From NCBI GenBank assembly GCA_964393815.1, contig CAYMUP010000001.1, forward strand, positions 1-62,799: a DNA stretch of 62,799 nucleotides, written 5' to 3'. The notes beneath the pieces were generated by a model that was given only the letters and a program-made list of their open reading frames with translations, did no database searches and was not told where the DNA came from. The position numbers and the translations under genes are program-made. The DNA comes from an uncultured Candidatus Saccharibacteria bacterium. Its GTDB lineage: Bacteria > Patescibacteriota > Saccharimonadia > Saccharimonadales > UBA4665. Below are positions 15,320 through 60,821 of this stretch, in pieces (position 1 is the stretch's first letter; each line of letters starts with the position of its first letter).

Positions 15320-15367
15320 CTTCACTTGGGACGCCCGTTTCAACAGAGGCGGGTTTCACTTGGTTTC
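15320..15367 (-). repeat. dispersed dual-GTGAAA element, copy E (minus-strand orientation, 52 nt upstream of the recF start)
   Basis: The reverse complement reads GAAACCAAGTGAAACCCGCCTCTGTTGAAACGGGCGTCCCAAGTGAAG. The half-sites are 34 nt apart. Closest to copy D. Confidence 0.7.
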
Positions 15368-15635
15368 AAAATATCGAATATCGAATGCCGAATACCTAAA
15401 CAAAGTTTCAATGTTCTAAATCTCTAAATAATCTCGGCTTATGGTCGTCTCTAGGCGAACATAGTGAGTCGAAGGGTTTTCGCCTAAGGCGAAGTAGAAG
15501 ATAGTATGGGAAAAGCCAAAACGCAACCGTCCCAGGCTACCTAGCTGCATGTTTTCCATTCTTTGTTGTTTAGACATTCGATATTAGTAATTAGCGATTA
15601 GTCGACTTTAGAACCCCGATTCTTTGGGCCTCCGC

Positions 15636-16727
15636 CTATGATTTGAGGGGCATGATGATGTGTAGGTAGCTGGTGTCGTCGGGACTAGAAAGCAGCACCG
15701 CCTCAAGCTTGCCGTTGAAGCCAACTTGCACTTTTGCACCCTCGATCACCTGGAGCGCGTCAATCACAAATCGGGAGTTAAGCGTTATGGAGCCACTACC
15801 GACTGCTTCGACTTTGGCGGTGGCGTTGTTTTCCCCCAACTGTGAAGCCACGGCGCGCACCCATATACTCTCGCTGGCTTCATCAACACTCACCACCACG
15901 CTGCCGGCACTTTCACGCGCAAACAAGTTTGTAACCTTTACAATACTCGCGAGCTCACTGCGCGACATCGTCGCCTGAGTCGTGAAGCTTCGGGGGATAA
16001 GTTTACGATAGTCGGGATAGTTGCCGTCGATCAACCGTGCTACTAACTCGACCTCACTAGCCTCAAATTGGATCTGCTGGTCGTCGTGGGTAATCTGCAC
16101 TTCGCCAGTAAAATCATTGATAATACGCAGCACGTCGTGTAAGGCAGTCGCCGGCACCAGCACCCTTACTTCTTTATCGAGCTCCATAAGCTCTTTTTCG
16201 GCCAGGCGGTAGCTGTCGGTTGCAGCGGCGTAGAGTTTACCGTCAACCGTGTGGAGGAGCACACCAGTCAACACTGGTCGGCTGTCATCATTTGAGGCCG
16301 CAAAAATCACTTGCTGCAACGCCTGCTTTAGCACCGGTCCGGCGATGCTCCACGACACACCCTTTTCTACGCCCGGTACCACCGGGAATTCCTCGGCACT
16401 CATACCATTTATAACTGATTTATAACTGTCGGTGTTGATCTTGAGTCGCTGCTCATCTTGTTCTAGTTCGATCACGCCACTCGGCAACCCACTAATAAAA
16501 TCTTGAAACAAGCGGGCAGGGATGGTGATCGATCCTTCGGATTGCACCTGGGCACCCAGGTAGCTTTTGATAGCAATGTCTAGGTTGGTCGCCGTGAGGC
16601 TCAGCCGATTATCGGAAATTTTGAGTAGCACGTTGCCGAGAACAGGCAGGGTACCCCGCGAATTTGCAACCCTAGCCACCATAGAAAGGGCTCTTGCTAG
16701 GTTTTCTTGAGTGACCTTTAGTTTCAT
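15636..16727 (-). CDS. dnaN: DNA polymerase III beta sliding clamp
   Basis: 363 aa. MKLKVTQENLARALSMVARVANSRGTLPVLGNVLLK. Three-domain length. Sits between dnaA and recF. Confidence 0.92.
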   Translation of the reverse strand: MKLKVTQENLARALSMVARVANSRGTLPVLGNVLLKISDNRLSLTATNLDIAIKSYLGAQVQSEGSITIPARLFQDFISGLPSGVIELEQDEQRLKINTDSYKSVINGMSAEEFPVVPGVEKGVSWSIAGPVLKQALQQVIFAASNDDSRPVLTGVLLHTVDGKLYAAATDSYRLAEKELMELDKEVRVLVPATALHDVLRIINDFTGEVQITHDDQQIQFEASEVELVARLIDGNYPDYRKLIPRSFTTQATMSRSELASIVKVTNLFARESAGSVVVSVDEASESIWVRAVASQLGENNATAKVEAVGSGSITLNSRFVIDALQVIEGAKVQVGFNGKLEAVLLSSPDDTSYLHIIMPLKS

Positions 16728-16786
16728 ACACAGCTCCTTGTATTAATAATGTTTCTTGTACGTAATGTAGGGGTATTTATAGTGGG

Positions 16787-16860
16787 TGTGGAAAGAGTGG
16801 AAAAGCCAGGGAACACCACTGTTAGTTGACCAAAAAAGAGCGTGGAAAAGCCGTGGAACG
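16787..16860. promoter_or_regulatory. DnaA-box cluster in the dnaA-dnaN spacer (second half of a bipartite oriC)
   Basis: TGTGGAAAG 16787-16795, AGTGGAAAA 16796-16804, CGTGGAAAA 16841-16849 and CGTGGAACG 16852-16860. All are the complement orientation of TTWTCCACA-type boxes. Confidence 0.6.
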
Positions 16861-17009
16861 GACGGTGAAAAATGTGTGCAGAACCAGATAGTTTGTACAC
16901 ATTTTTTATGAGGGTATAGAAGGACTTGCGGAAAATCTTTGCCGTAGAGGGTGCTTTATGCACCACTTTGTCCTCAGGCACTCCACAGCGGCTGGTCCGG
17001 GGGCAGCGC

Positions 17010-18398
17010 CTAGGCATATAGTCGCTCCTTGATGTCCTGAATGGCGCTGCGAAGCTCGGGGTTAAGTTGCATCTCATGTTCGATTTTTTCGACGGAATGC
17101 ATGGCAGTAGTGTGATCTTTGCGGCCGAGTTCATGGGCAATTTTGGGAAAACTAAGGTGCAGCTCGCTCCGCAGCAGGTACATGGCAACTTGTCTCGGTA
17201 CGACAATATCTTTGTCGCGCTTAGGACCAACGATGTCCTCGAGGCTGACTAGGTAGTGTTTGGCGCAGCGCTCGATTATCTGTTTGGCGCTTAAGTGCTT
17301 TGGTCTTGAGTGGCCAGCGCCCAGTAGACCCGTAGCGATGGCTAGGTTTGGTTCGAGCGCACGCATTTCACAAAAGGCGAGAAGCTGGTTGAGCGCGCCT
17401 TCGAGTTCACGAATGTTGGTTTGGATGTTGACCGCCAGATACTCAACGACGTCGGTCGGCAACTGCACTCCTCGTGATTCGGCCTTTGACTGCAAAATAG
17501 CGCACCGGGTTTCATAGTCGGGGTTTTGCATGTCGATACTCATCCCCCAAACAAAACGGCTCTTGAGGCGGTTCTCGAGGGTGGGGATTTCGCCGGGGGG
17601 TTTATCGCTACTAAGGATAATCTGGTGATTGGCCTGGTGGAGAGCGTTAAAGGTGTGAAAAAACTCTTCCTGGATCTTTTCTTTGCCGGCGAGGAACTGC
17701 ACGTCGTCTACGATGAGTACGTCGGCGCTTCGGTAGTGGTCGGCAAAGGCGGTGTTTTTCTTGAAGCGCAGGGCGTCGACAAACTCTTGTACAAACTGCT
17801 CGCTCGTAACGTATACGACACGGGCACCGGGTTTGCTAGCGAGTACAGCATTACCGACAGCCTGTATGAGATGTGTTTTGCCTATTCCAGCGCCGCCGTA
17901 AAGAAAGAGGGGGTTGTATTTCGTGCCTGGTTCCGCGGCAATAGCTTGACAGGCGGCATAGGCGAGTTCGTTGGCAGCGCCGACAATGAAAGTGTCAAAA
18001 GTATAGCGTTCATTTATACCTTGTCGGTAGGTGTGGCTGAGGGGGGAGGTTGAGGGAATGGGAGGTGGGGTTGTGGCGGTGGGGGCGTGAACAGGACGAG
18101 GCTGGGGCGCTAAAACTTCAACCGGAATCTCTGGTGCTTTGGTTTGGGGTTGAGCGGGCAAAATTTTATAGCTGATTTTAGGCGAGGTTAGGCCATTTTT
18201 TTGCAGCGTCTTACTAATAAGGTCATTATATTTGCCTTCAAGCTGTTGCTTTATAAATATGTTTGGCGCACCAATGACCACGTTGTCGCCGTCAACACTA
18301 ACAAGCTGGGAGTTTTTAAACCACGTTAGGTAGCTGGCTCTTGATAGGCCAATCTCGACTTCTCCTAATACGGTTTGCCACAGGCGTTCGGTCTGCAT
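17010..18398 (-). CDS. dnaA: chromosomal replication initiator DnaA
   Basis: LFLYGGAGIGKTHL (Walker A), LIVDDVQFLAGKE, and the C-terminal DNA-binding helix region ELGRKDHTTAMHSVEKI. Confidence 0.97.
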   Translation of the reverse strand: MQTERLWQTVLGEVEIGLSRASYLTWFKNSQLVSVDGDNVVIGAPNIFIKQQLEGKYNDLISKTLQKNGLTSPKISYKILPAQPQTKAPEIPVEVLAPQPRPVHAPTATTPPPIPSTSPLSHTYRQGINERYTFDTFIVGAANELAYAACQAIAAEPGTKYNPLFLYGGAGIGKTHLIQAVGNAVLASKPGARVVYVTSEQFVQEFVDALRFKKNTAFADHYRSADVLIVDDVQFLAGKEKIQEEFFHTFNALHQANHQIILSSDKPPGEIPTLENRLKSRFVWGMSIDMQNPDYETRCAILQSKAESRGVQLPTDVVEYLAVNIQTNIRELEGALNQLLAFCEMRALEPNLAIATGLLGAGHSRPKHLSAKQIIERCAKHYLVSLEDIVGPKRDKDIVVPRQVAMYLLRSELHLSFPKIAHELGRKDHTTAMHSVEKIEHEMQLNPELRSAIQDIKERLYA

Positions 18399-18467
18399 AT
18401 GTTTAAACTATCCCCATTCCACCCATGTTCGATTACTGTGTATAACTATACGGCACAGTGGGGGTTG

Positions 18468-18589
18468 TTTTCCACAATAATTTATACAACTATTGTCTGT
18501 GAGAAAGATTACAGATAAGAGGTGAGTTATCCACAGGAGTTAACGACCCCTGTTATACTTGTGGAAAAGACTTGGCAAAAGGTGGAAAA
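18468..18589. promoter_or_regulatory. DnaA-box cluster upstream of dnaA (oriC / dnaA promoter region)
   Basis: Perfect consensus TTATCCACA at 18527-18535, TTTTCCACA at 18468-18476, TGTGGAAAA at 18560-18568 and GGTGGAAAA at 18581-18589. An AT-rich stretch follows at about 18660-18724. Confidence 0.7.
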
Positions 18590-18724
18590 GTTGCTATAGT
18601 TGACTCTAACGCTACGACAGGGAAGGGTACGGAGGTGAGCTAAACCCGCCGATGTGGTATACTACCAGTAGTAGCAAATCTTTGTAATACTAATGTAAAA
18701 AAGAGAGTTCAAGAGAGATTTTTT

Positions 18725-18862
18725 ATGCCAAAACGAACCTATCAGCCTAAAAAACGCCATCGCTCACGTGAGCATGGTTTTATGAAGCGAATGGCTAGCC
18801 GTGCCGGTCGCTTGGTGCTAAAGCGCCGCCGAAACAAAGGCCGCGTCCGTCTTTCGCACTAA
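18725..18862 (+). CDS. rpmH: 50S ribosomal protein L34
   Basis: 45-aa ORF not in the supplied track (below the length cutoff): [45 protein letters not shown]. Located upstream of rnpA. Confidence 0.92.
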
Positions 18863-18909
18863 AGTCTTATAGCGTATCTTCAGAGAGAAAGGTAGCTTCG
18901 TAAGCGAGT

Positions 18910-19290: not shown

Positions 19291-19293
19291 TTT

Positions 19294-20789: not shown

Positions 20790-20792
20790 GCC

Positions 20793-24842: not shown

Positions 24843-25448
24843 ATGCTTAAAAAATCTCAACATGGTTTTAGTGCACACTTACTTTTGCCGGTTGTAGCGA
24901 TTTTAGCTGTAATCGGCATCGGTGGGTTTCTGGCAAAACACTATTACGACATGAGCCAGCAGCGCAAAGAGTTTATGACCGCAAAAGCAGAGGTAAGTAA
25001 ACTCGGTGAACTCGTCGCAAAAGAAACCAAGCCAACAAAACACCAAGCTGTCCAGTTCTGCGACTACGGCCACGCTAAATGGGGTCCAGTCGGCAGGACA
25101 TGCTGGGCGGAGTATTTCTTGCAGTGGAACTTCGTGGATGAGCAAAAGGCGATTGATATCTTCAACTCTGAAACAGACACAATAAAAAAACTATCAACAA
25201 ATTATAAGGTTACACAAGACGGTACCAATAAAAACTACTCAGCTTTGAGGGGCGAGCTGTTTAAAACACCAAGCACTTCACTCCAGTGTGACAGGTATTT
25301 GTATTATAACGACGACAATGAAATCCAAAGCAATAATCGCTTGTCACTTCCGGGTTTGCCGTTTGAGCCAGAAAAAAACAGTGCTATCATGAACATCTCG
25401 TGCAGCGGTGATGCAATGGCAGAGTATTTCCCAGTCCGTAAATCTTAA
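24843..25448 (+). CDS. hypothetical N-terminally anchored protein (201 aa)
   Basis: ATG ORF with the TM helix LLLPVVAILAVIGIGGFLA. Several Cys residues. No motif recognised. Its last about 24 nt overlap repeat copy A. Confidence 0.5.
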   Translation: MLKKSQHGFSAHLLLPVVAILAVIGIGGFLAKHYYDMSQQRKEFMTAKAEVSKLGELVAKETKPTKHQAVQFCDYGHAKWGPVGRTCWAEYFLQWNFVDEQKAIDIFNSETDTIKKLSTNYKVTQDGTNKNYSALRGELFKTPSTSLQCDRYLYYNDDNEIQSNNRLSLPGLPFEPEKNSAIMNISCSGDAMAEYFPVRKS

Positions 25449-25493
25449 AATGAGGTGAAACTCACCTCTGTCAATAACATATCCCAGGTGAAA
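25425..25493 (+). repeat. dispersed dual-GTGAAA element, copy A (long form)
   Basis: TATTTCCCAGTCCGTAAATCTTAAAATGAGGTGAAACTCACCTCTGTCAATAACATATCCCAGGTGAAA. GTGAAA hexamers start at 25455 and 25488, 33 nt apart. Confidence 0.75.
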
Positions 25494-25649
25494 TGAATCT
25501 CCCATCACCTGACGGTCGGTGATTTTCTTGCCCCGCAACTCCGACCTGCGGTCGTAGTTGCGCCCGTACCCTACAAATGCTAGTGGCATTTATAGGTAGC
25601 GTTCGGTTCAACCCCGACCTGACGGTCCGGGTATGCACGCGTTAGCTAA

Positions 25650-34121: not shown

Positions 34122-35156
34122 ATGGATTTTAGACAATATGCAAAAAAAAAGTATATCAAGTCTCAGGATAGAATATTGGAGTTTGGTCCGCTTATTAGGC
34201 CGACGGTGACTAAAAAAACACATCCGAATGTTTACTATGCAGATATTCGAAGCACGGAAGACATAAAGAAACTTTACACATCGAATGACTATCTCAAATC
34301 CACTGGCCTTACTGTGGATATTAATAAAGTTGTTGAAATTGACTATGTTATTAAAGATAGCTACAAAAATACCTTTAAAAACGTCGAGAAGTTTGATGTT
34401 GTTGTACTGTCGCATGTTATCGAACATATGCCAGATATAATTGATTTCTTTGGAGATATAACTCATACACTAAAAAAGGGCGGTCGACTAATAATTGTCT
34501 ATCCGGATGCAGAGTATTGTTTTGATCATTTTAGGAATGGCTCCTCTTTTATAGATGCATACGATGCACACATCAATAGTGGTGCTTCAAGCAAGCGTGT
34601 TTTTGACTTTGTTTATAATGTTGTCAATGAAAATGAAGCGTCCTATTACTGGGGGGATCAAGATCAGAACAGTAAAATACCGCGTAATGAGTTTCGTGAT
34701 GCAGTCGCCGCCTACGAAAGCGCAAAAAGTGGTGTGCTGCCTGACGACACTCATTTTTGGCCCTTTTCGAACTATCAGTTGATAAAGTTTCTGTACGACC
34801 TAGACAGGGCAGGTTTATCGAGTTTTGATATAGAAAAATTCTATCCTACCCCAGAAAACCTTCAAGAATGCCTACTGGTCCTGAGGCTTAAAAATAAACC
34901 CGGCGTGAAACACGCAACATATCGAAAAATATTTGATGACGTCAGTCCTTCGGCGAAAAGGATAAGAGCAGTGCGTATAGCCGAGGGTCTAGCAGGAGAA
35001 AAAGAAGCGCTAAAAAAAGAAATTGAAGAGCTTAAAAAAGAAAATCACTATATTTCGAACGAGCTTGGAAAGGTCTACGCAAGCAAGAAATGGAAATATG
35101 TCGAAAGCATAGCCAATATAAAAAATAAAATGACCGGCAGTGGACATGAAAAATAA
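34122..35156 (+). CDS. class I SAM-dependent methyltransferase with C-terminal coiled coil
   Basis: ATG 34122 preferred over the track TTG at 34098. VVVLSHVIEHMPDIIDFFGDITHTLKKGGRLIIVYPD. C-terminal EKEALKKEIEELKKENHYISNELGKV heptad-like region. Confidence 0.75.
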   Translation: MDFRQYAKKKYIKSQDRILEFGPLIRPTVTKKTHPNVYYADIRSTEDIKKLYTSNDYLKSTGLTVDINKVVEIDYVIKDSYKNTFKNVEKFDVVVLSHVIEHMPDIIDFFGDITHTLKKGGRLIIVYPDAEYCFDHFRNGSSFIDAYDAHINSGASSKRVFDFVYNVVNENEASYYWGDQDQNSKIPRNEFRDAVAAYESAKSGVLPDDTHFWPFSNYQLIKFLYDLDRAGLSSFDIEKFYPTPENLQECLLVLRLKNKPGVKHATYRKIFDDVSPSAKRIRAVRIAEGLAGEKEALKKEIEELKKENHYISNELGKVYASKKWKYVESIANIKNKMTGSGHEK

Positions 35157-41097: not shown

Positions 41098-42265
41098 GCC
41101 AAAAGTTTCTATCGTGATCCCGGTATTCAACGGGACGAACTATCTGGCGCAGGCTATCGACAGTGCGCTTGCTCAAACATACAACAACATCGAGGTACTG
41201 GTTATCGATGACGGCTCTACCGACTCAGGTGCAACTGAAAAAAAGGCACTATCTTATGGCGATAAAATCAGATATTTTAGGAAACCCAATGAGGGCGTCG
41301 CTTCCGCACTGAACTTTGGTATAAAGAAGATGGAAGGCGAATATTTCTCATGGTTGTCGCACGATGATCTATATGAGAGGTCAAAAATTGCCGACCAAAT
41401 AGAGTTGGTCGAGTCGCTGGGGGGTAGTCATAACATCGTAGCCTGCAATGCAAGAATGCTGTACCAAAATGGCATAAAAAAACCGATGAAGATGGATAGC
41501 CAAATATTCAAGCATCTTAGTATATTTCTTGCAACATCTGCGAGAGTTGGTCTGAATGGCTGCTCGTTACTAATACCCCGCCAAGCGCTTGTTGAAAGCG
41601 GGGGCTTTAATACAAGCCTACCTTTTACCCAAGACTACGACATGTGGCATAGGTTGGGCGATAAGCATGGATATCGATTTGTGTTACTTGAAAAAGAACT
41701 TGTTCTCTACAGGGTACATGCCAATCAAGACAGCTTGGCCAAGAGTGAACTATGCGTGAGGGCGGGAGATGAATTACGCAGTAAATTGTTAAAAGAAATC
41801 CCCTTCAGCGATTATAGAGGGTACTTTGCGGAAAGAGAAAGCAATATCGACATATTCATCAGTGACTACAAAGCGTATAAAGAGAGCGGGCACTTTCACG
41901 CAGCTTCGGAGATGCTGCGCATCCTATTCAAATATTATGATTTGCATGACAAAAATAAACTCTACGATATTTTCCTTAAGGAAGTTGATGTACATGCATT
42001 GAAAAGAATGCCTCTTTTTCGCATTAAAAGCAGCCACTTTAATGTGGACGATAAGAAGTATGTTCGTGAGGCTATACCATTACTATACTCGCGTATAATA
42101 GGGGATAACGACATACTTATCCCGCTAAAACTATCCATGCCCATAAATATGTCCGAGTTGTCTGCATCGAGGAGAATACTCTGGAGGATTAGTCAGAATC
42201 TAAAGAATGAAGGCATACGCATAACAACACAAAAGCTAATAAAGAAAGTTATTCAGTCTCACTAG
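41084..42265 (+). CDS. glycosyltransferase family 2 (diverged third paralogue of the PKVSIVIPV-type domain)
   Basis: MLKDKPKVSIVIPVFNGTNYLAQAIDSALAQTYNNIEVLVIDDGSTD ... WLSHDD. Confidence 0.85.
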   Translation: MLKDKPKVSIVIPVFNGTNYLAQAIDSALAQTYNNIEVLVIDDGSTDSGATEKKALSYGDKIRYFRKPNEGVASALNFGIKKMEGEYFSWLSHDDLYERSKIADQIELVESLGGSHNIVACNARMLYQNGIKKPMKMDSQIFKHLSIFLATSARVGLNGCSLLIPRQALVESGGFNTSLPFTQDYDMWHRLGDKHGYRFVLLEKELVLYRVHANQDSLAKSELCVRAGDELRSKLLKEIPFSDYRGYFAERESNIDIFISDYKAYKESGHFHAASEMLRILFKYYDLHDKNKLYDIFLKEVDVHALKRMPLFRIKSSHFNVDDKKYVREAIPLLYSRIIGDNDILIPLKLSMPINMSELSASRRILWRISQNLKNEGIRITTQKLIKKVIQSH

Positions 42266-43986
42266 TTAGGTGTTTTCATAGGCATAGGCATGCCACTGGG
42301 AATGAGATTGAGTTCTGTGTTCGAAACTAACAATGCGTCCGTGAATTTATACGAGTAGCTAAAATATGTCTCTTCGTTGGGGAAGGGTCTTTTGGTGCCT
42401 GAATCAATCACGAATATTCCACCCGCTGGTGATCTGACTAATATTCCATCTCTATAATGAACATTATATTCCATAGGTACACCATCGGGGATTATGGACA
42501 ACTCGGCTTCGCTTATAGAGGCAATACCCCCCCATGAATAATGGTTGCTTATGAAAACCAGTTCATTCGGAAAGGGACGTTTATATCCGTTTTCAACGCG
42601 GTAGATACCGCCTAACCTAGACATTAGTAGTAGATCATCTCTAAGGTGCGGGTTGTACTCAAGAGGCGAGCCTTCTGGTATAAGTGAGATTTCAAGATCA
42701 CTTATCGAAAGAGCATCCACCCAGCTATACCCATAGCTAAGGTAAGTGCCTTCATTCCGGAATGGTCGTTTAAAACCATTCTCCACAATGTATATGCCGC
42801 CTTTGGGGGACTTGACAAGTATCCCATCTCTAAAGTGGGTGTTGTACTCAATCGTCGCACCACGTGGCAAGCGATCAAACTCGGATTTGGAAATAGTAAG
42901 GACACTTGACCATTTATTCTTATAGCTCAAGAAAGTTATCTCATTCGGAAAGGGTCGTTTTAGGCCACTCTCCATCTGATAAACTCCTTCTCCAGCTGTT
43001 GTTATCAAGCTCCGAACAGTGGATCCGAACCAGTCGCTGTAGACGCGCCAGAAGTTGCGGTTGCCGTATGCACTACAGTTGTCGCCGGTGCCGTACATGT
43101 TGTTTAATGCGGCCTGATTCGGTTGATAGGGGGTGTAGGTGTATAAGGCGGCAGATGCTTTTGATTCCAGATAAACATTTCCGCCTCCACAACCGCTAGG
43201 TGCGACATTCCACAGAATATTGTTGGTCTGATAGGGGCGCTTGTATTGCCACCAACTCTGAGTCATGTTGTCAAGATACCAGCGTAGTAGAGCGGCCGCT
43301 TCGCGCATCTGGATAGAAAAGCCTGCGTAGTTGCTATCACAGTTGGCGCTACCACCTGGGCCGCTGTCTGGGCAGTGTGCGCCCATAGCGTATAAGTACT
43401 GGTTGCGAAATGGCCAGTCATCGGTCGTGAGCGGACCAGCCGACTCGGTGTGCAGTTTGACGAGTAGTACTTTCGGGCTGATGTTGTAGGCCTTAGCGGC
43501 GTCGGAAATCAGCTGGGCGGCACTGACCGCGCCGGCGGGGATAGGCGCGCCATTGGCGTTGCTTGCAGGCAAGCCGGGGCCGGGAGTTGTTTTGGGCACC
43601 TCATAGTACTCTTTTAGGCAGGTGAATGGTAGATTGGCGTCGGAAGTCTGGTTATAGGTATTGTAACGGTTTGCAAAAGTAGCACGCGAGGTCGTAACCC
43701 ATGTGCCGCCACTAAACCAGCTAAAACGTACCTGGCCGGTACTGGCATTGTAGTAGTAGCCAACGCTCTTTGTGCCGTTGTTATCGCAGGCTGGGTTTTG
43801 AGAGTTCAGAAAGTTCTGTATCTCCTGCGTGCTCATACTATTGGCATCTGTAAATATACCGTCATCAATTATGCGTCCTGCTTTCCAATCTGAGGCTGTA
43901 ACTGCGTTGGCTGTGGGGGTTAAAACCGTGAAAAAGCTTGAAGAAACCAGCACGCCAACAGATAAGGTGTATAGAATCTTTTTCAT
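42262..43986 (-). CDS. secreted protein with four C-terminal 63-aa tandem repeats (putative cell-wall or glycan binding)
   Basis: Signal peptide MKKILYTLSVGVLVSSSFFTVLTPTANA. The repeat GGIYxVENGxKRPFPNExxxxSYxYxW ... IPxGxPxEYNxHxRDGxLV occurs four times (aa 333-574, nt 42265-42990, period 189 nt). Confidence 0.65.
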   Translation of the reverse strand: MKKILYTLSVGVLVSSSFFTVLTPTANAVTASDWKAGRIIDDGIFTDANSMSTQEIQNFLNSQNPACDNNGTKSVGYYYNASTGQVRFSWFSGGTWVTTSRATFANRYNTYNQTSDANLPFTCLKEYYEVPKTTPGPGLPASNANGAPIPAGAVSAAQLISDAAKAYNISPKVLLVKLHTESAGPLTTDDWPFRNQYLYAMGAHCPDSGPGGSANCDSNYAGFSIQMREAAALLRWYLDNMTQSWWQYKRPYQTNNILWNVAPSGCGGGNVYLESKASAALYTYTPYQPNQAALNNMYGTGDNCSAYGNRNFWRVYSDWFGSTVRSLITTAGEGVYQMESGLKRPFPNEITFLSYKNKWSSVLTISKSEFDRLPRGATIEYNTHFRDGILVKSPKGGIYIVENGFKRPFRNEGTYLSYGYSWVDALSISDLEISLIPEGSPLEYNPHLRDDLLLMSRLGGIYRVENGYKRPFPNELVFISNHYSWGGIASISEAELSIIPDGVPMEYNVHYRDGILVRSPAGGIFVIDSGTKRPFPNEETYFSYSYKFTDALLVSNTELNLIPSGMPMPMKTPN

Positions 43987-48960: not shown

Positions 48961-49626
48961 ATGACTAAAGAAACCATCGATACTAAAGAGCTTCGCGCCA
49001 CGCCGGAGCAAGAAGATTTTGCTGGCAAATACACCGAAGAAGGCACTGGAAAAGTGGGCGGTAAGCTGCTGGACAACTACTTTAAGGCTGTCAAGTCACT
49101 CTACAAGGGGGCTCACTTTGAAAAGGGAGCTAGGCTAAAAGCCGTTGAAATTGGCTGCGGTGAGGGTTTTTCGACCGAGCGGCTACGGGCAATGTTGCCA
49201 GGTAATGTTAGCTTGAGTGCGTCGGAGTACGTGGCCGAAATGATCCCACGAGCAGCAGAGCGCAACCCCAAGGTACCTATCGTACAAGAGAGTGCCTACG
49301 AGCTCAGCTACAAAGATAATTCACTCGACGTTGTTTTTCTGCTGGAAGTGCTCGAGCACCTCGACTATCCAGATAAAGCGCTGGCTGAAATTCACCGGGT
49401 GCTGCGGCCAGGCGGGGTGCTGATACTGGGCGTTCCACGTGAATTTTTATGGTGCACTCTCAATTTTGCACGTGGCAAATATTGGAAAAGCCTTGGAAAC
49501 ACTCCAGGTCATCTAAACCACTGGAGTACCTACACGCTAAAGCGTTTTATTGGTAAACACTTTGGTCCGGTTAGCGATCAGCGCACACCCTTGCCGTGGA
49601 CCATCATTCGCGCCCAAAAACGCTAG
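48961..49626 (+). CDS. class I SAM-dependent methyltransferase
   Basis: AVEIGCGEGFSTERL ... DVVFLLEVLEHLDYPDKALAEIHRVLRPGGVLILGVP. Confidence 0.8.
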   Translation: MTKETIDTKELRATPEQEDFAGKYTEEGTGKVGGKLLDNYFKAVKSLYKGAHFEKGARLKAVEIGCGEGFSTERLRAMLPGNVSLSASEYVAEMIPRAAERNPKVPIVQESAYELSYKDNSLDVVFLLEVLEHLDYPDKALAEIHRVLRPGGVLILGVPREFLWCTLNFARGKYWKSLGNTPGHLNHWSTYTLKRFIGKHFGPVSDQRTPLPWTIIRAQKR

Positions 49627-49733
49627 CAGACTAGAGTCGAAACATAGAGTGTAAGAGCCATAGGACGTTTCTTGTTTCTTCACCATCTTTTAGCTTGGTT
49701 GGAATCCAAAAACCAGACCAAAAAAACCCATTT

Positions 49734-49944
49734 CGTACACCAGCCGTTCCGGCTGACGTACGACCTTCTTTTTCTGCCGAAGAAAAAGAAGGCAAAACCC
49801 GGGGTCCCCATGAAACCTGTTTCATGGGGTGTTAGTGTCTCGGCACACTTCCTACTGCTCGGCAACTGTTGTGAACCAGCACAACTTGGGAAACACTAGC
49901 GTAGTACGCATTTTCGCCTTTGTTGTGCTGTATCACAACAGTTG
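49734..49944. other. array of four long hairpins in a 440-nt ORF-free gap (candidate structured RNA and/or terminators)
   Basis: Four hairpins. CGTAC-ac-CAGCCG/ttc/CGGCTG-ac-GTACG at 49734-49762. 12-bp CCTTCTTTTTCT/AGAAAAAGAAGG at 49764-49792. CCCCATGAAAC/GTTTCATGGGG at 49806-49829. CAACTGTTGTGA + AGCACAAC pairing with GTTGTGCT + TCACAACAGTTG at 49863-49944. Confidence 0.4.
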
Positions 49945-49998
49945 GACCGGGCAGTTTCCAGAGTGCCACTAACCCCGCAGCAATGAAGGTCTAACATC

Positions 49999-50065
49999 TA
50001 TTTTCCAACGTCCAACCTCAAATGAGGTGAAAGTCACCGAAGTTAATTATCAATCCCAGGTGAAA
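49999..50065 (+). repeat. dispersed dual-GTGAAA element, copy B (long form)
   Basis: TATTTTCCAACGTCCAACCTCAAATGAGGTGAAAGTCACCGAAGTTAATTATCAATCCCAGGTGAAA. Hexamers start at 50027 and 50060, 33 nt apart. Abuts the stop of the minus-strand GtrA gene. Confidence 0.75.
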
Positions 50066-50476
50066 TCAGTCTTTTGCTGTGGTAGGACGAAAGACCCAGT
50101 GCTTGTACCACAGCCACTTCCAAACAGTGAAAAAGAGTGAGGAAACCCAAAGCCCCACAAACGGTGACACGCCGAGCCATTTCAAGCCTCCAACTATGGC
50201 GTAGTCGATAAGTACATTGAGCAGGCTAAACGGTACATAGCGTTTTAAGACCTTTTTGTGGCCGGCTATCCGAGCTGTGCTCGCAAAAGCCAGGTAATGC
50301 TGGACAAGATAGTTCAGTCCCCAGCCAACAAGATCGGCGATACCTTTGGCAAGCAGCCAGTGCCAGTGCAGTAGCCCGTAGAGCAGGGCAAAGATCAAGT
50401 AGCCGCTGATAAAAAATACCACTCCACCGATGTTAAAATACAAAAACTGGAGCAGGGGAGCCGACCTAATCTTCAT
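50066..50476 (-). CDS. GtrA-family membrane protein
   Basis: Four hydrophobic helices. MKIRSAPLLQFLYFNIGGVVFF start preferred (track start 50497). Small size and location in a glycan cluster fit the family. Confidence 0.65.
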   Translation of the reverse strand: MKIRSAPLLQFLYFNIGGVVFFISGYLIFALLYGLLHWHWLLAKGIADLVGWGLNYLVQHYLAFASTARIAGHKKVLKRYVPFSLLNVLIDYAIVGGLKWLGVSPFVGLWVSSLFFTVWKWLWYKHWVFRPTTAKD

Positions 50477-51782
50477 GTGACTGCTTTTCCTTAGCACTAC
50501 TTAGGGCAATGGCAGTCAGCCCCCAAAAGACGTACGCCAGCGTATCATCCGCCCACGCATGAGAGAGCAAATTAACGACAGCGAGTCCGAGTAGCGCAGC
50601 GAGGCAGGCAAGTGCCAGAGGGTTGTTCCTACGTTGCCACAGCCTGCGCCAGACCATCACGAGGAGACTTACAAATAAAATTAGCCCCACCCACCCCATC
50701 TCCTGACCTATCTGTAGGATATAGTTTTCAGCAAGCTTTGTTTCTCCATGGGTGTTATGAACACTGGCTGGACCGGCGCTGCCAACCCCTCCGCCTAGTG
50801 GGTGGTCAAGAACGTCAAGTGCAGCCGTGCTGAGCGCAGAGCTACGCTGATCATTAGAACTCACCTCGACTTTAGAATTATCGCTGGTGTGAAAAAGAGC
50901 GTTTTGTACATGAGGGTTAGAATGAAATGCGGTAAAAGTTAACCCTGTTAAAAACAGTATCCCAAGTGAAGCAAGCCAAAGTTGTTTTGTTTTTTTAGCT
51001 CTCATCGAGCGGGTGATAATGACCACAAAAACTGCCACTGCAGCGCCAATCCACGCACTCCGAGAGAAGCTTGCAAGCAGCGCCCCGGCCGTCAGCGCAG
51101 CCAGTATTTCCCAGTACGCACCACGCCAACGCCGAGCGTAAAAAGCCGCTAACAGTCCTGTGATGACCACTAGGTATGCACCGAGCGGGTTTGCCCCCCT
51201 TAGCGTCGAAGCAAACCGTGGGTAAGCGTCGTCATTGTTGATCGTTTCGTAGGACTCAATCGTTGCAGCCGAGTAGCCAAAGTGCTTCAAAAAGTCGTCG
51301 GGTAGGACGGTGAGCTGCAAAACGGCAAAAGCGGCGACCACCAGGGCTGGCCCCAGTACAATCTGCTGCCAATGCTGCAAAAGCCAGTTACTACGACGAG
51401 CCACAAGTGAAACTAAAAGGAAGAATAGCCAAAAACGTAGATCCTGGAATATGCCAAGGCAGGCTGCACCGAGCGAAACTTTACCAGTTAGCAACGGAAC
51501 GACCGTCCAAAGCACCGTGAGAAGAGCAAAGAGCACAACCATCCTCACTAAACGGTCGCGCACTAACCACTGTCGAGTCGCTTTACTGCGCAGGGACCAT
51601 ACAACTGCACAACCAGCTAGTATAAGGAGTAAAACTGCGCTCCACGCGCGGAGTAGCGTGTAGTGTCCAACAAGACTGGCGCCCCACACCGTCAAAAAAC
51701 CATGGAAGGGCGCTATCATCAAGATGGCGGCGATCAAATAGTTGGCTACTTTTGTGCTGGTTGCTTCGCTTGTGCTTTTCAT
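50466..51782 (-). CDS. O-antigen ligase / Wzy_C-family polytopic membrane protein
   Basis: About 11-12 TM helices. ASFSRSAWIGAAVAVFVVI resembles the Wzy_C loop-entry motif. A large loop follows it. Confidence 0.65.
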   Translation of the reverse strand: MKSTSEATSTKVANYLIAAILMIAPFHGFLTVWGASLVGHYTLLRAWSAVLLLILAGCAVVWSLRSKATRQWLVRDRLVRMVVLFALLTVLWTVVPLLTGKVSLGAACLGIFQDLRFWLFFLLVSLVARRSNWLLQHWQQIVLGPALVVAAFAVLQLTVLPDDFLKHFGYSAATIESYETINNDDAYPRFASTLRGANPLGAYLVVITGLLAAFYARRWRGAYWEILAALTAGALLASFSRSAWIGAAVAVFVVIITRSMRAKKTKQLWLASLGILFLTGLTFTAFHSNPHVQNALFHTSDNSKVEVSSNDQRSSALSTAALDVLDHPLGGGVGSAGPASVHNTHGETKLAENYILQIGQEMGWVGLILFVSLLVMVWRRLWQRRNNPLALACLAALLGLAVVNLLSHAWADDTLAYVFWGLTAIALSSAKEKQSHED

Positions 51783-53237: not shown

Positions 53238-53240
53238 GTC

Positions 53241-54409: not shown

Positions 54410-54901
54410 ATGGATCAGACACCGGCCGCGTCCGAGAAGACACTTAGGCCGACCAAAAAGCAAAAAGAGCTCTTAGCCTACATCGAGCAGTTTATAGCTG
54501 AAAACGGCTATAGCCCGAGCTACCGTGAGATCATGAGTGGCCTCGAGTACACCTCGGTAGCGACTGTGGCATTGCACGTCGGTAATCTTATTTCACGTGG
54601 TCATTTACGCAAACGTGAGCATAGCGCTCGCTCGCTTGAGGTGGTGACTCCTTCGGCTGAATTTACTTCAGAGCCCAAGCTAAAGACAAACGAAGTGAAA
54701 CCATCAGAGGAGAAATGGCTCATCGAGAAGGTCGAACACTTGTTTAGCGAGGCAGAAGGTCAGGCAGTCGCCACCGAAGAAGACTTGCGCCCCATTGAGA
54801 TTATGTTGGCCGCTCTCCGTGTACTCGGGCTAGAAGCGGGCGCACAGAGCTTTGCGGAGCGTTACCAAGCACTGAAAGGGCAGGGTAAGTCAAGTGAATG
54901 A
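54410..54901 (+). CDS. LexA-type winged-helix DNA-binding protein lacking the S24 peptidase domain
   Basis: TKKQKELLAYIEQFIAENGYSPSYREIMSGLEYTSVATVALHVGNLISRGHLRK follows the LexA N-terminal domain pattern. The remaining about 90 aa have no Ala-Gly/Ser-Lys autocleavage signature. Confidence 0.7.
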   Translation: MDQTPAASEKTLRPTKKQKELLAYIEQFIAENGYSPSYREIMSGLEYTSVATVALHVGNLISRGHLRKREHSARSLEVVTPSAEFTSEPKLKTNEVKPSEEKWLIEKVEHLFSEAEGQAVATEEDLRPIEIMLAALRVLGLEAGAQSFAERYQALKGQGKSSE

Positions 54902-55583: not shown

Positions 55584-55588
55584 CCGAA

Positions 55589-56607: not shown

Positions 56608-56663
56608 AGTCTTCCGAGCAGAAGCGAAGTATGTCAACATATAGACATAGTCTCTTGTCGCTG

Positions 56664-57882: not shown

Positions 57883-57905
57883 TGCGAGGAGTGTAAAATA
57901 AAGCC

Positions 57906-58073
57906 ATGATTGATGAGTTTGACCCATATGCCGAGATGGTAAAAGAACAGGCGCCGGAGCTGTTTTGTGAAGTGTGCGGACACTATCCTCTAGAGCCGGT
58001 ACATGGGCACTTTGCCTGTCCGAGCTGCAAGAGCGTCACTAAATGCTGCGAAGGTTTGCCACAAGATGTGTAG
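57906..58073 (+). CDS. small zinc-ribbon-like protein (55 aa), not in the supplied ORF track
   Basis: Translated by hand: MIDEFDPYAEMVKEQAPELFCEVCGHYPLEPVHGHFACPSCKSVTKCCEGLPQDV. It has CxxC ... CxxC spacing. AGGAG at 57887-57891 lies 14 nt upstream of the ATG. Confidence 0.45.
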   Translation: MIDEFDPYAEMVKEQAPELFCEVCGHYPLEPVHGHFACPSCKSVTKCCEGLPQDV

Positions 58074-58080
58074 GGAAAAG

Positions 58081-58127
58081 CAAACGAAGTGAAAGTCACC
58101 GAAGTTAAAAATACATCCCAGGTGAAA
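58081..58127 (+). repeat. dispersed dual-GTGAAA element, copy C (overlaps the nadD start region)
   Basis: CAAACGAAGTGAAAGTCACCGAAGTTAAAAATACATCCCAGGTGAAA. Hexamers start at 58089 and 58122, 33 nt apart. Both GTGs are in frame with nadD. Confidence 0.75.
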
Positions 58128-58712
58128 GAGCGTCGGATTGGAATATATAGCGGCACGTTTGACCCCGTGCACGCCGGGCATGTTGCGTTTGCACTCCAGG
58201 CGCTTGAGAAAGCTGATCTTGAGGCCATTTATTTTTTGCCAGAGAGGTTGCCGCGCTACAAGCCTCACGTTGAGCATTTTGGCCACCGTACAGCCATGCT
58301 AGAGCGGGCGCTTCGACCACATGTCGGGCTCAAGCTTATCGATGACCTGCCGGAGCCATATTTTTCTGTCGCCAGAACTCTGCCAAGGCTGCGGCAAAAG
58401 TTTCCAGAGGCTAAGCTGTGCTTTTTGATTGGGTCAGATGTAGCCACTCATATTTCAAGCTGGGATAGTGTTGAGGAGCTTCTTCGCTCTAGCGAACTCA
58501 TCGTGGGCCTACGAGAAGGGTCAGACGGCGTAGCCCTAACGGCAAACTTGCCTGAAGGGGCGAAAGCCAAGGTAGTCTCCGTAGCTAGACCAGGGATACG
58601 ATCATCGCTAATTCGGAAGTCTGTGTACGACAACGCAAGCCCTCCCGGACTATTAAAAAGTGTGTATAACTACGTTCGACGAGAATGGCTCTATCTCAAA
58701 AACCCCTCATAA
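58089..58712 (+). CDS. nadD: nicotinate-nucleotide adenylyltransferase
   Basis: RIGIYSGTFDPVHAGH (GxFxPxHxGH) and C-terminal IRSSLIRKSV (ISSTxIR-like). The start is ambiguous between GTG 58089 and GTG 58122, both inside repeat copy C. Confidence 0.85.
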   Translation: MKVTEVKNTSQVKERRIGIYSGTFDPVHAGHVAFALQALEKADLEAIYFLPERLPRYKPHVEHFGHRTAMLERALRPHVGLKLIDDLPEPYFSVARTLPRLRQKFPEAKLCFLIGSDVATHISSWDSVEELLRSSELIVGLREGSDGVALTANLPEGAKAKVVSVARPGIRSSLIRKSVYDNASPPGLLKSVYNYVRREWLYLKNPS

Positions 58713-58965
58713 ATACAGACAAAGTTACAACATATGTTTATTGCTAATGGCTACTATCAGTTGGTACACTAGAGGTACTTACGGTTGCAGTGCGAGTGCG
58801 ACGGTAGAGACAAAAATATTTCAACAAAAATAAAAACTCTGTGTTTTCAGAGGTGATAAGAGGTAGGACGCTATGTCTATCCCAGTTACAACAGTGTTTG
58901 ACAGGCCGTCGGCGGTTCACGTGCGCGTGAGACGACCGGGCTGGCAGCAGTTCATCCACTACTAA

Positions 58966-58992
58966 AAAAGAGGGGTTTTATACCCCTCTTTT
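58966..58992. terminator. bidirectional rho-independent terminator
   Basis: AAAAGAGGGG / loop TTTTATA / CCCCTCTTTT. The 10-bp stem has an A-tract on one side and a T-tract on the other. Lies 22 nt downstream of the minus-strand DsbA-like gene. Confidence 0.8.
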
Positions 58993-59013
58993 CATGAAAA
59001 TATGGTGCTAAGA

Positions 59014-59658
59014 CTACTTCTTTAGTGCCTCATCTAAAAGCTTGCTGAAGGCATCGAGGCTGGGTTGACCTTGAGCGTCTAGGAGCTTGCTTGAATCTAC
59101 TTTTTTACCGTTCAAGAAAAATGCTGGCGTGGCCTTTTGCTCCCCACTTTTATCAAATTCAGTGATGTCGGCCTTGATGGCGTCATTTATTTTTTCACTT
59201 TTAAAGTCTTTCTGGAAGGTCGCGACGTTGAGGTTTAGCTGCTTCGCATATTGATCAAAATAGCTGTTGGCGTTTGTCGCCTGAGTCCAAGCCTGCCAGT
59301 TTGAAGCAGCGTAAAGAAGGTCGTGCATTTCCCAGAATTTTCCTTGCTTATCGGCGGCTTCGGCAGCACGGGCAGCCGCATAGGCGTTTTGGTGAATTTG
59401 GGCCAGCGGCAGGTTGCGGAATTGGAACTTAACCCGGTCTTTGTACTTTTCGCGGACCTGCGCGGTGACTGGAGCAAAACTCTCACACGCCGGACACTGA
59501 TAATCACCATATTCAACAAGCGTCACCTTGCTATCAAGCTTGCCTACAACGTGGTTCGTCGGCGTAGCGACTGCCGTCTTTTTGTTGTTATTCACAAATA
59601 CAAGGCCTAAAAATGCCACAATGATAACACCGATAACAGCCCAAAATCGCTTATCCAT
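59014..59658 (-). CDS. DsbA-family thiol:disulfide oxidoreductase, membrane anchored
   Basis: N-terminal TM FWAVIGVIIVAFLGLVFV. Thioredoxin-fold active site EYGDYQCPACESF. Confidence 0.82.
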   Translation of the reverse strand: MDKRFWAVIGVIIVAFLGLVFVNNNKKTAVATPTNHVVGKLDSKVTLVEYGDYQCPACESFAPVTAQVREKYKDRVKFQFRNLPLAQIHQNAYAAARAAEAADKQGKFWEMHDLLYAASNWQAWTQATNANSYFDQYAKQLNLNVATFQKDFKSEKINDAIKADITEFDKSGEQKATPAFFLNGKKVDSSKLLDAQGQPSLDAFSKLLDEALKK

Positions 59659-59749
59659 AATTACGTCTAAAACTCCCTCTTTATGTACACCTATGTTAGC
59701 ACGCCGAGCGTCACTTTTAAAAACGCTTGGAAACTCGTAGTATTAAGTT

Positions 59750-60805
59750 ATGCTTACATTTACATTTGGACTTGGTCTTGGCTGTACGGCGGTGCTACTT
59801 GCGGCGGTTTACAGAGAGTACCACCATGTTCCCACGCTCGAGCTAAAGCGAAGGGCTAGGCAAGGGGATGAGGTCGCGGCTGCTCTTTACCGCGTAGCTG
59901 CCTATGGACTGAGTGTAAAGACGCTACTAATTGGTCTCGGTGTCGCTAGTCTTTATGGCTGCCTCTATTTTCTAGAAGAGGCTACGCCGCAGTGGGCGGC
60001 GGGACTAATCTTTACTGTGGTATGTGGTCTGTGTGCCTGGGTGCTCAGCGCAAGATCATCTTCTGTGTCGCTCAAAGTTGCAACCGCCACCGCCCCATTT
60101 TTTGCAAGAATCACCGAACGCTTTGACCCATTGTTCTCCCGCGTTGGCCGCATTTTTAGTCGTTTTCAACCTGTGAACTTACACACCGGAGTCTATACTA
60201 AGTCAGATCTACAGCAGCTGTTTGACAGACTAAAAAGGCAAAAAGATAGCTCCATTAGTCCTGTCGATATTGATCTGGTGTCGCACGCGCTTAGTTTTGG
60301 TGACAAGCTGGTTTCAGAAGTGATGACCCCCAAGCGTGTCGTTAGTGCTGTGCAGGCGAATGATACGGTTGCGCCAATTCTGGTGAGTGAACTGCACAAA
60401 ACAGGGCATAGCCGTTTCCCCGTGTACCAGGGGAAAGACGAGGAGGTTGTCGGCGTGCTGTATTTACACGACGTCACCGCTCATATGGACTCGCGCCCGG
60501 TTCATGAGCGAATGCGTACGCAGGTTCGGTATGTGCACGAGGAGTATTCACTCAGACAGACGCTGCAGGTGTTCTTAAAGACAAAACAGCATCTGTTTGT
60601 CGTCGTCAATGAGCTTGAGGAGTACGTTGGCATTATCACGATCGAGGATATTCTCGAGCAGGTGATTGGGAAACCTATTGTCGATGAATTTGACGAATAC
60701 GAAGACCTACGAGCTGTCGCTGCTTCGGCCGCTCGCAAAGAGCACATTGCGCATGAAAATAGTATGTCAAAACCAAACGAAGTGAAACCCACCCCTGATA
60801 AATAG
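59750..60805 (+). CDS. CNNM/DUF21 transmembrane domain plus CBS-pair protein (TlyC/CorC-like, no CorC_HlyC domain)
   Basis: Three to four N-terminal TM helices. VSEVMTPKRVVSAV ... HSRFPVYQGKDEEVVGVLYLHDV ... VVVNELEEYVGIITIEDILEQVIG (CBS pair). Confidence 0.72.
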   Translation: MLTFTFGLGLGCTAVLLAAVYREYHHVPTLELKRRARQGDEVAAALYRVAAYGLSVKTLLIGLGVASLYGCLYFLEEATPQWAAGLIFTVVCGLCAWVLSARSSSVSLKVATATAPFFARITERFDPLFSRVGRIFSRFQPVNLHTGVYTKSDLQQLFDRLKRQKDSSISPVDIDLVSHALSFGDKLVSEVMTPKRVVSAVQANDTVAPILVSELHKTGHSRFPVYQGKDEEVVGVLYLHDVTAHMDSRPVHERMRTQVRYVHEEYSLRQTLQVFLKTKQHLFVVVNELEEYVGIITIEDILEQVIGKPIVDEFDEYEDLRAVAASAARKEHIAHENSMSKPNEVKPTPDK

Positions 60806-60821
60806 CCAATCCCAAGTGAAA
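60774..60821 (+). repeat. dispersed dual-GTGAAA element, copy D (spans the stop codon of the CNNM/CBS gene)
   Basis: CAAACGAAGTGAAACCCACCCCTGATAAATAGCCAATCCCAAGTGAAA. Hexamers start at 60782 and 60816, 34 nt apart. Confidence 0.75.

Follow-up and report, generated by a model that had tools for sequence, protein, structure and literature searches.

What is the short sequence with two GTGAAA boxes that recurs in the genome of an uncultured Candidatus Saccharibacteria bacterium? We analysed a 62,799-nt stretch of contig CAYMUP010000001.1 (the window, by which the whole stretch is meant) together with related DNA, and kept the names A to E that the original prediction had given to five copies of the element. 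The analysis indicated that these copies belong to an undescribed family of short interspersed repeats, nearly confined to a clade of Candidatus Saccharimonadales (candidate phyla radiation, CPR/Patescibacteria). A protein-binding site and a miniature mobile element are the two live options for its nature, and we lean, with less than even confidence, towards the mobile, self-copying one.

A two-box repeat and its distribution

The pattern GTGAAA-N20..32-CCCARGTGAA matched the window exactly five times, at 15321-15359 on the minus strand and at 25455-25492, 50027-50064, 58089-58126 and 60782-60820 on the plus strand, and had no match in 100 dinucleotide-preserving shuffles; chance was thus rejected as an explanation. 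Reading of the sites and the pattern scan agreed with the original prediction on the positions of the five copies and on the distance between their boxes, 33 nt for A, B and C against 34 nt for D and E; all five take the form GTGAAA..C.CC-N15/16-TCCCARGTGAA. The comparison with shuffled sequence, which it had named as a genome-wide check, placed the motif above chance in the window.

Aligned copies gave the consensus aAAtGArGTGAAAcTCaCC(GAAG/YCTG)TTAAAAa-N4-ATCCCAGGTGAAA. The 3' box is almost always ATCCCAGGTGAAA, either AAATG or TCCCA comes before the 5' box, and some copies contain two AAATGnGGTGAAA boxes. The basic unit appears to be 33 bp, with ~1.4 units per copy (copy length 46-50 bp), and the longest copy seen, at L002, contains one and a half units. 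Over ~370 kb of related DNA, the box spacing was 33 nt in 36-41 cases and 34 nt in 6-7 cases, with essentially nothing else; the loci had been ascertained with a gap allowing only 32-35 nt, and the test is effectively one of 33/34 against 32/35. The strict spacing and the central A-tract would be compatible with a protein-binding geometry of three helical turns. The middle of the element had been described as freely variable, whereas we found GTTAAAA and C.CC to be semi-conserved and the tetranucleotide after C.CC to fall into discrete classes: among 41 aligned copies it was GAAG in 14, TCTG in 11, CCTG in 9, CTTG in 3 and another sequence in 4, with no intermediates between the GAAG and YCTG groups.

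RNAalifold analysis of the 41 copies found a consensus stem of no more than 3 bp (-0.5 kcal/mol), and on the antisense strand no stem at all. A GGTGA/TCACC stem (5-7 bp; copies A and B in the window) exists only where the R of RGTGAAA is G, and the partner C never changes. The element therefore appears to act as a DNA sequence and not as a folded RNA, as the original prediction had proposed: neither strand has a consensus fold and R shows no covariation. Its statement that the element is not a canonical terminator also stood, the stem being found only in A and B, with no U-run after it. A repeat search found no terminal inverted repeats; both ends are direct RGTGAAA repeats, and copies appeared only as direct families or as whole-copy inverted matches between copies of opposite orientation. 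No target-site duplication was found either, the flanks of the 41 aligned copies having nothing in common outside the element.

To define the distribution of the family, we scanned one genome per species (185,579 species, the window's own not included) with the stricter pattern GTGAAAnnCnCC-N14..17-TCCCARGTGAA. Nine loci were obtained: L001-L004 were titled Saccharibacteria or Saccharimonadales; L007, titled only 'bacterium', had two perfect boxes within a mutarotase gene; and the remaining four were apparent chance matches in unrelated or GC-rich coding DNA. A scan of JGI metagenomes gave 30 loci with ~25 true copies, mostly from two samples with close relatives of the window, including counterparts of copy E (L012) and copy B (L020). 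IMG/VR gave 0 matches and the INPHARED phage collection none. The profile scan of relatives that the original prediction had suggested, made with nhmmer, yielded 42 copies with E<1e-6 in 333 kb (strong copies). The density was ~1 copy per 10 kb, or ~5 copies per 55 genes, in the window, where the profile search found few weak or intermediate copies; the copy-selected contigs L024 and L027 had 3-5 copies per 13-14 kb. The 20-kb syntenic loci of five other species contained no full copies, only GatB and DnaE remnants, which argues that copy number is lineage specific. In the literature we found no description of the element, nor of dispersed repeats in CPR/Saccharibacteria; like the lack of Rfam, phage or viral matches, this agrees with the original prediction, to which no element of such architecture was known.

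Gene context, reading frames and turnover at orthologous sites

Twenty-five of the 42 strong copies are intergenic, seven overlap a gene end and ten lie inside open reading frames (ORFs). The original prediction had placed all full copies at gene boundaries, which is not simply so once relatives are included; its view that the element has been absorbed into gene ends held, and extends to gene interiors. In-gene copies were found in the inter-domain linker of PolA (L022, L028), the linker of GatB and a juxtamembrane segment of a membrane protein (both L013), the N-tail of VKOR (L001), mutarotase (L007, L015, L033) and the N-terminus of NadD (copy C, L003, L004). Weaker ones occur at the N-termini of RecA and DnaE, and also in YchF and MiaA.

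All ten strong in-gene copies are in sense orientation, which is explained by frame statistics. The GTG-AAA frame is open in 30 of 41 copies and encodes the hydrophilic peptide NEVKLTEVKNxSQVK (mean hydropathy -0.73), and TGA or TAA codons close the two remaining sense frames (41/41 and 31/41 copies, respectively). On the antisense strand the frames stay open but give hydrophobic peptides (such as FHLG..., FTWDAFLTG...), and the antisense in-gene copies that we found encode parts of membrane proteins, a Wzy-like protein in the window (..GILFLTGLTFTAFH..) and a GT39-like protein in L024 (FHLIRQIKRGEFHLIS).

About 27 of 34 copies have a same-strand gene upstream, often with its stop codon only 3-100 nt away, and in ~10 convergent pairs the element's 3' end comes within 1-16 nt of where the opposing gene stops. 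In tandem spacers the sense:antisense ratio was ~9:4 after orthologous duplicates had been collapsed; the orientation bias was not significant, and a transcription-linked orientation of copies is not established. The genes next to 14 copies, from the ~0.5 Mb of related DNA that was covered, were housekeeping genes (mnmA, pgi, tgt, metG, recX, alaS etc.), with no transposase among them. Sites that match promoter or terminator consensus sequences lie beyond the limits of the copies.

Of 13 pairs of neighbouring canonical copies, 11 point the same way. A third-position GC-skew test, averaged over plus- and minus-strand genes, found the element strand to be G-rich in 13 contigs vs 5. All copies of the window would be on the leading strand if oriC lies beside dnaA at ~18.4-18.9 kb; a link between the element and the replication strand is only suggestive. 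The dnaA-dnaN-recF genes are on the minus strand, with a ~500-nt spacer upstream of dnaA, and the probable oriC region is here (17010-18900), with copy E (minus strand) on its left and copies A-D (plus strand) on its right.

Syntenic loci revealed presence/absence differences, in-place origin of the motif and switching of types. The principal comparison was with a 21-kb region of CP064992 (L050), which is syntenic with 50-62 kb of the window. Both boxes of the nadD copy are as intact in L003/L050, L004 and L048 as in the window. Copy B is absent after GtrA in CP064992. L048 and L050 lack copy D, and there the protein has 12 aa and the spacer ~22 nt fewer than in the window; at this site L048 reads TAG-TCAA-CCTCAC vs TAGTATGTCAA, 55 nt with the element and CCTCTCTCAC in the window, which has ~55-58 extra nt, situated between TCAA and CCTC without duplication. 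The comparison of syntenic loci, likewise suggested by the original prediction, thus found B and D missing in relatives. This fits its proposal of a miniature mobile element; the hallmarks of an insertion sequence or of a miniature inverted-repeat transposable element (MITE) were not seen.

The Wzy_C orthologue of CP064992 keeps a remnant of a sixth copy at L050 1750-1727, and the LexA-like protein of the same genome has a degenerate full copy at its N-terminus. The site of copy E is occupied in L012 and L019, where the spacer has diverged apart from the two boxes and GTT.AAA. An element-bearing N-terminal extension of DnaE occurs in L041, L043 and L045 but not in L047. A search for GatB homologues returned many Saccharimonadales with the linker peptide or decayed forms of it (..SQVKN). 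The GatB linker segment is of equal length in the seven species whose DNA was compared; its 3' box has TCC CAG in 7/7 and GTG AAA in 5/7 species, its 5' box decays, and a single codon is kept in only 5% of the invariant-residue columns of the alignment. In the high-copy lineage (L013), the synonymous change ACA GAG to ACC GAA went towards the consensus. Five GatB homologues from other Saccharimonadales (P0033, P0052, P0098, P0106, P0111) contain a second, unrelated in-frame linker insert (..RSAGGERSEPGEGG.. / ..PEKGRAPS..), which suggests further translatable repeat families in Saccharimonadales.

AspS of CP064992 and JBGAVA01 reads NEVELTEVKNRSQ / KFMNEVELTEVKNRSQAEDGD where AspS of the window reads SETELSEIKARVG / KFMSETELSEIKARVGAEDGD, at the same place and with the same length. 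The DNA of the CP064992/JBGAVA01 segment is 85% identical to the consensus, with the CTC, ACC, TCC and CAG codons in common. Mutarotase likewise aligns with PDB 2hta across the element without a 15-residue insert. AspS and mutarotase, with no change in length, indicate that the motif can also replace a pre-existing, loosely similar stretch, besides being gained in ~50-bp additions. The type of a copy also differs between orthologous sites: polA is GAAG in L028 vs TCTG in L022, the recF spacer is TCTG in the window vs GAAG in L019, nadD is GAAG in the window vs TCTG in L004 and L048, and the orthologue of copy A in L029 is GAAG (TCTG in the window). Such discrete switching is predicted by replacement from another copy and not by stepwise mutation.

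The copies of the window and their surroundings

The E-values given here for individual copies come from an nhmmer profile built from 34 copies, and Pfam bore out the gene names of the original prediction (RecF, DnaN, a cytidylyltransferase-like NadD, a CBS/CNNM-type protein, GtrA and a LexA_DNA_bind protein). Copy E (15317-15370, minus strand; TCTG type, 34-nt spacing; E=8e-12) has the recF ATG 52 nt downstream and, on its other side, the terminator-like hairpin of dnaN (15540-15523). Directly upstream of it, in the long dnaN-recF spacer, is a 34-nt inverted repeat (15370-15403 / 15566-15599), whose arms are 71% complementary and 162 nt apart. Its right arm is found together with the element in L018 and L030, and the left arm is missing in both loci. 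Copy A (25445-25495, plus strand; TCTG type, 33-nt spacing; E=6e-14) begins on the stop codon of ORF 24843-25448; the next gene downstream is convergent, and a terminator-like hairpin with a T-run lies 3' of the copy at 25504-25530.

Copy B (50017-50069, plus strand; GAAG type, 33-nt spacing; E=3.5e-14) abuts, at its 3' end, the stop codon of the convergent GtrA gene and is bordered on its 5' side by a conserved structured non-coding region. The original prediction had described a 'left arm' common to A and B; we corrected this, as the arm of copy B adjoins that ~300-nt region, which is best read on the opposite strand. The region (window 49690-50000, minus strand; L021 7505-7839; L028 7412-7754; L024 1026-1327) is hairpin-rich, shows 74-79% identity in four contigs with different flanking genes, and has a minus-strand consensus fold with many G-U pairs and 8 compensatory pairs among the 4 sequences. 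It ends in a 14-bp hairpin followed by a U-run (49763-49720) and has no Rfam, tRNA or tmRNA match, making it a candidate for a new structured RNA that would be transcribed opposite to the element. The Wzy_C/GtrA pair (window 50066-51782 vs L050 1460-3402) is inverted relative to the otherwise syntenic CP064992 region, with copy B and the structured region at one edge of the inverted segment. A degenerate sixth copy (50926-50973, plus strand; E=3e-4) lies antisense within the minus-strand O-antigen-ligase-like (Wzy_C) ORF, where the membrane-helix peptide ..SLGILFLTGLTFTAFH.. is encoded.

Copy C (58081-58128, plus strand; GAAG type, 33-nt spacing; E=3.5e-13) covers the nadD 5' end. Both boxes are in the NadD frame, and NadD of canonical length (MKERRIGIYSGTFDP) starts from the second GTG. 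A small conserved Cys-rich ORF (..CPACKNITKCCEGMP..) is found directly upstream of nadD (window 57883-58073 / L050 7951-8121); in CP064992 and JBGAVA01 its stop codon overlaps an ATG (ATGA) that would start NadD with an element-encoded extension. Copy D (60774-60824, plus strand; CCTG type, 34-nt spacing; E=1.8e-11) spans the end of the CBS/CNNM-type gene, stop codon included; the element supplies the protein tail NEVKPTPDK*. An extended -10 promoter-like site for aspS lies ~68 nt further downstream; the corresponding TTTGAGGAGG...TGGTAAAAT block is conserved between the window (60889-60917) and L048 (~3010-3050), a 59%-identity relative.

The 14-mer CAAACGAAGTGAAA, which had been reported as common to C and D and recurring at 54687, is indeed present at 54687, 58081 and 60774. 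The half copy that the original prediction drew from the first of these sites (AAACGAAGTGAAA, 54688-54700, plus strand, in the linker of the LexA_DNA_bind protein encoded at 54410-54901) has the letters described, yet is doubtful as a fragment: the protein segment is kept in the CP064992 orthologue (TNEIKEAEEKWL vs TNEVKPSEEKWL in the window), where the DNA motif is missing. Native coding sequence with a likeness to box 1 is the probable reading. Apart from such details, the original prediction described the element accurately.

Other repeats of the window concern large ORFs. A 300-nt exact direct repeat (35156-35455 and 36981-37280), with a third copy at 67% identity (41097-41396), lies at the starts of three adjacent large ORFs within a low-GC block at 28-42 kb (GC 0.40-0.45 vs ~0.51 elsewhere). 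The three ORFs appear to be paralogues that arose by recent duplication, perhaps within an acquired island for surface polysaccharides. At 42532-42960, in the minus-strand ORF 42262-43986, a 51-nt segment occurs three times exactly 189 nt apart, a periodicity that implies a 63-residue protein repeat.

Explanations of the element and its likeness to known systems

We tentatively read the element, at somewhat less than an even chance, as a translatable repeat, specific to its lineage, that copies itself and spreads through templated insertion or short-patch conversion. New copies would be templated on existing ones, sometimes adding ~50 bp at a gene end and sometimes overwriting a short stretch that already resembled the element. 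They would persist where harmless, that is, just past stop codons, between genes, or within genes in the single open sense frame, where the peptide NEVKLTEVKNxSQVK is hydrophilic and probably disordered and sits in linkers and termini of housekeeping proteins. The two boxes would be the recognition sites of the copying or binding protein. The anatomy, the taxonomic distribution, the frame rule, the presence and absence at syntenic sites, the in-place origin and the type switching are observations; the selfish rather than useful nature of the element, and its copying mechanism, we infer from them.

Several results weigh against this reading. The analysis turned up no copying enzyme, no terminal inverted repeats and no target-site duplication, and mobility is deduced only from distribution; if the element is mobile, it would move by some other, perhaps non-classical route. 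The nadD boxes are intact in four species whose synonymous sites are about half diverged, with the middle drifting; the GatB 3' box keeps TCC CAG in all seven species against the 5% background of codon retention; and in the recF spacer, otherwise diverged, the boxes remain as footprints. Such retention looks like purifying selection on each copy, and hence like a function for the host, unless conversion restores the boxes. Origin in place without insertions or deletions is also predicted by molecular drive on an uptake signal, and the co-orientation (11/13 pairs) and the G-rich strand bias (13 vs 5 contigs) are not predicted by a purely selfish model.

The boxes might instead belong to a genome-wide DNA signal bound by a sequence-specific protein, either for DNA uptake and self-recognition (competence) or for marking or organising the chromosome. 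Biased uptake and recombination, or selection, would then drive tolerant sites to the motif, and boxes on one helix face with the A-tract would form the recognition surface. We consider this unlikely, but it would account for the in-place origin in coding DNA without length change (AspS, mutarotase), for the 3' box conserved at synonymous sites, the footprints in the spacer and the strict 33/34-bp spacing. Uptake sequences of Haemophilus and Neisseria are said, in work by Smith in 1999, Davidsen in 2004 and Findlay and Redfield in 2009, to lie in weakly constrained protein segments and after genes, and copies of the element do the same. Many matches are in or near genome-maintenance genes (recA, recX, recF/dnaN, dnaE, polA, lexA-like), a possible enrichment, and natural competence is reported for cultivated Saccharibacteria (PMC10633639), which would also suit a signal of this kind. 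However, a density of ~1 per 10 kb is not the ~1 per kb of uptake sequences, and a 46-bp bipartite motif differs from the known 9-12-bp cores. The GAAG/YCTG switching needs replacement from a paralogous copy, weak or intermediate copies are few in the window, copies tend to co-orientation whereas known uptake sequences have no strand bias, B and D resemble ~50-bp additions, and we found no uptake sequence for Saccharibacteria in the literature. The boldest version, that the element is the first DNA uptake/self-recognition signal of a CPR bacterium, read by the type IV pilus/Com machinery of one Saccharimonadales clade and written into spacers and, codon by codon, into RecA, DnaE, PolA, GatB, AspS and others, strikes us as rather improbable.

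Three further explanations each account for a subset of copies and fail on others. An unstructured RNA element in untranslated regions, whether a site for an RNA-binding protein, RNase or Rho (3' ends, stability) or part of a translation-initiation region, is quite improbable; copies in ORFs would be tolerated because ribosomes mask them. The same-strand upstream genes of ~27/34 copies, often 3-100 nt from the stop codon, point to RNA, as do the hairpin and T-run after several copies (A at 25504-25530; L037, L021), the G-poor 20-60 nt upstream of the element (C/G ratio 1.2-1.7) and the second GTG as the canonical start in nadD and recA. Yet no structure is conserved, sense and antisense copies in tandem spacers stand at only ~9:4 with orthologous duplicates removed, the ~10 convergent cases leave no room for a terminator in the 1-16 nt before the other stop codon, and four copies are antisense to both neighbours. 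Inert ORF copies would leave the synonymous conservation and the in-place origin in ORFs unexplained, and ~5 copies per 55 genes cannot constitute a general terminator.

LexA/SOS boxes are operators of 14-20 bp at the promoters of SOS genes and are bound by LexA. An operator for a transcription factor that binds direct repeats, such as the LexA_DNA_bind protein (54410-54901) or a response-regulator-like protein, and that would control adjacent genes, is very improbable. It would suit the direct-repeat half-sites at a fixed helical phase and the copies that precede recF and the aspS promoter or lie at the starts of nadD, recA and dnaE. Direct-repeat binding by LexA of some phyla, Patescibacteria included, is reported in a passage of PMC7739468, which adds to this side. 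Many copies are, however, past stop codons between convergent genes or deep in ORFs (polA, gatB, mutarotase, aspS), no distance to starts or promoter-like sites is fixed, relatives that retain the genes concerned lack B and D, and half-sites 33 bp apart are unlike known LexA boxes. As copies occur at 3' ends, inside ORFs and beside unrelated genes, with no fixed promoter distance, we see no link between the element and the LexA-like protein. That the conserved unit is a peptide, a short linear motif [ND]EVKxT[ES]VKxxSQVK selected in many proteins, with intergenic copies as pseudogenised remnants, is hardly credible, even though it recurs in termini or linkers of at least 10 unrelated proteins and AspS changed at least 6 residues towards it. 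Codons are fixed (TCC CAG GTG AAA; CTC ACC), not residues alone; over half of the copies are non-coding, contain a stop codon or have the frame broken by the 34-nt spacing; and antisense copies exist.

A number of known features were also considered and rejected. The whole window had no Rfam 15 match at gathering score, with none at E<=1 in 49500-50200, and no tRNA or tmRNA was found. A conserved RNA hairpin or Shine-Dalgarno/anti-Shine-Dalgarno switch (AGGTG vs CACCT) lacks covariation and a consensus fold on either strand. For an intrinsic terminator there is no U-run after the A/B stem, and terminator-like sites (25504-25530) lie outside the element; a Rho rut site does not suit an element that is not C-rich and whose upstream sequence is only modestly G-poor. 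Sigma-70 promoters on either strand misfit in hexamers and spacings, with promoter-like matches outside the copies. A leaderless-start cassette, in which the second GTG is the NadD and RecA start, does not extend to other copies, and fewer than half of them have the mini-ORF ATG-AAG-TGA in box 1. Canonical parS (TGTTTCACGTGAAACA, a 16-bp palindrome near oriC) has one 3-mismatch match in the window, at chance level, with only the GTGAAAC half-site in common. A clustered repeat (CRISPR) array does not agree with two boxes per copy, at most 1.5 units (L002) and a 'spacer' that is itself conserved. Integron attC sites and the variable and template repeats (VR/TR) of diversity-generating retroelements have the wrong anatomy, and the variation is not adenine-specific. 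Phage or viral origin was dismissed for lack of IMG/VR or INPHARED matches. Copies L024c and L027b share 135 and 82 nt beyond the core; the ~300-nt structured region near B was nevertheless dropped as the master of 5'-truncated retro-copies, its RNA folding on the opposite strand and occurring once per contig. For a replication-strand signal (Chi/KOPS-like), the skew of 13 vs 5 contigs is suggestive only, and the spacer orientation bias is not significant.

Genomes of CPR/Saccharibacteria are ~1 Mb, and ~1 copy per 10 kb extrapolates to ~100 copies per genome. Such a family would show an active copy-and-overwrite process in minimal genomes, with the repeat translated within RecA, DnaE, PolA, NadD and GatB and a native AspS segment overwritten. 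It would affect gene calling through N-terminal extensions, shifted stops and spurious ORFs, and would serve as a clade-specific marker and help to track down the protein by which the boxes are recognised. If the element were an uptake or self-recognition signal, it would have no precedent outside the Proteobacteria-type examples, with direct relevance to the new genetic tools for Saccharibacteria based on natural competence.

Several known systems resemble the element in part. The chromosome sites parS, Noc NBS, SlmA SBS, matS and KOPS also number tens to ~100 per genome, are often in genes, are conserved among relatives and act at sequence level; they are short palindromes or 8-mers, whereas the element has direct repeats 33 bp apart and insertion-like gains. 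Families of the REP/BIME and MITE types (REP, ERIC, BOX, Correia) are likewise small non-coding interspersed repeats; they number tens to hundreds, and most of them lie in transcribed spacers where genes end. They have palindromy or terminal inverted repeats (MITEs also target-site duplications) and are rarely translated, features that the element does not share; REP/BIME are extragenic only and form a stable hairpin, in contrast to at least 10 copies inside ORFs and no hairpin here. Uptake signal sequences (USS) of Haemophilus and DNA uptake sequences (DUS) of Neisseria are, like the element, lineage-specific, over-represented motifs that lie in spacers after genes and in tolerant frames and arise in place without insertions or deletions, and USS combine a core with helically phased A/T tracts. 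They differ in having 9-12-bp cores at ~1 per kb and no strand bias, whereas the element is bipartite, 46 bp long and found at ~1 per 10 kb, with discrete subtypes and what look like insertions of ~50 bp.

Rickettsia palindromic elements (RPE) were reportedly described by Ogata and colleagues in 2000. Like the element, they are short repeats dispersed in a small reduced genome, in spacers and in frame in housekeeping genes, where they encode a tolerated surface or linker peptide; no transposase is associated with them, and in-gene copies are common to several species and decay slowly. RPE are mentioned in passages of PMC1779305 and PMC10969869. They are hairpin-forming palindromes of 100-150 bp from an unrelated phylum, whereas the element is 46-50 bp long, has direct-repeat boxes and no hairpin, and, unlike RPE, has some copies that arose without a change in length. 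RPE would thus seem to be the closest analogue, by in-frame residence in the housekeeping genes of a reduced genome and not by palindromic anatomy.

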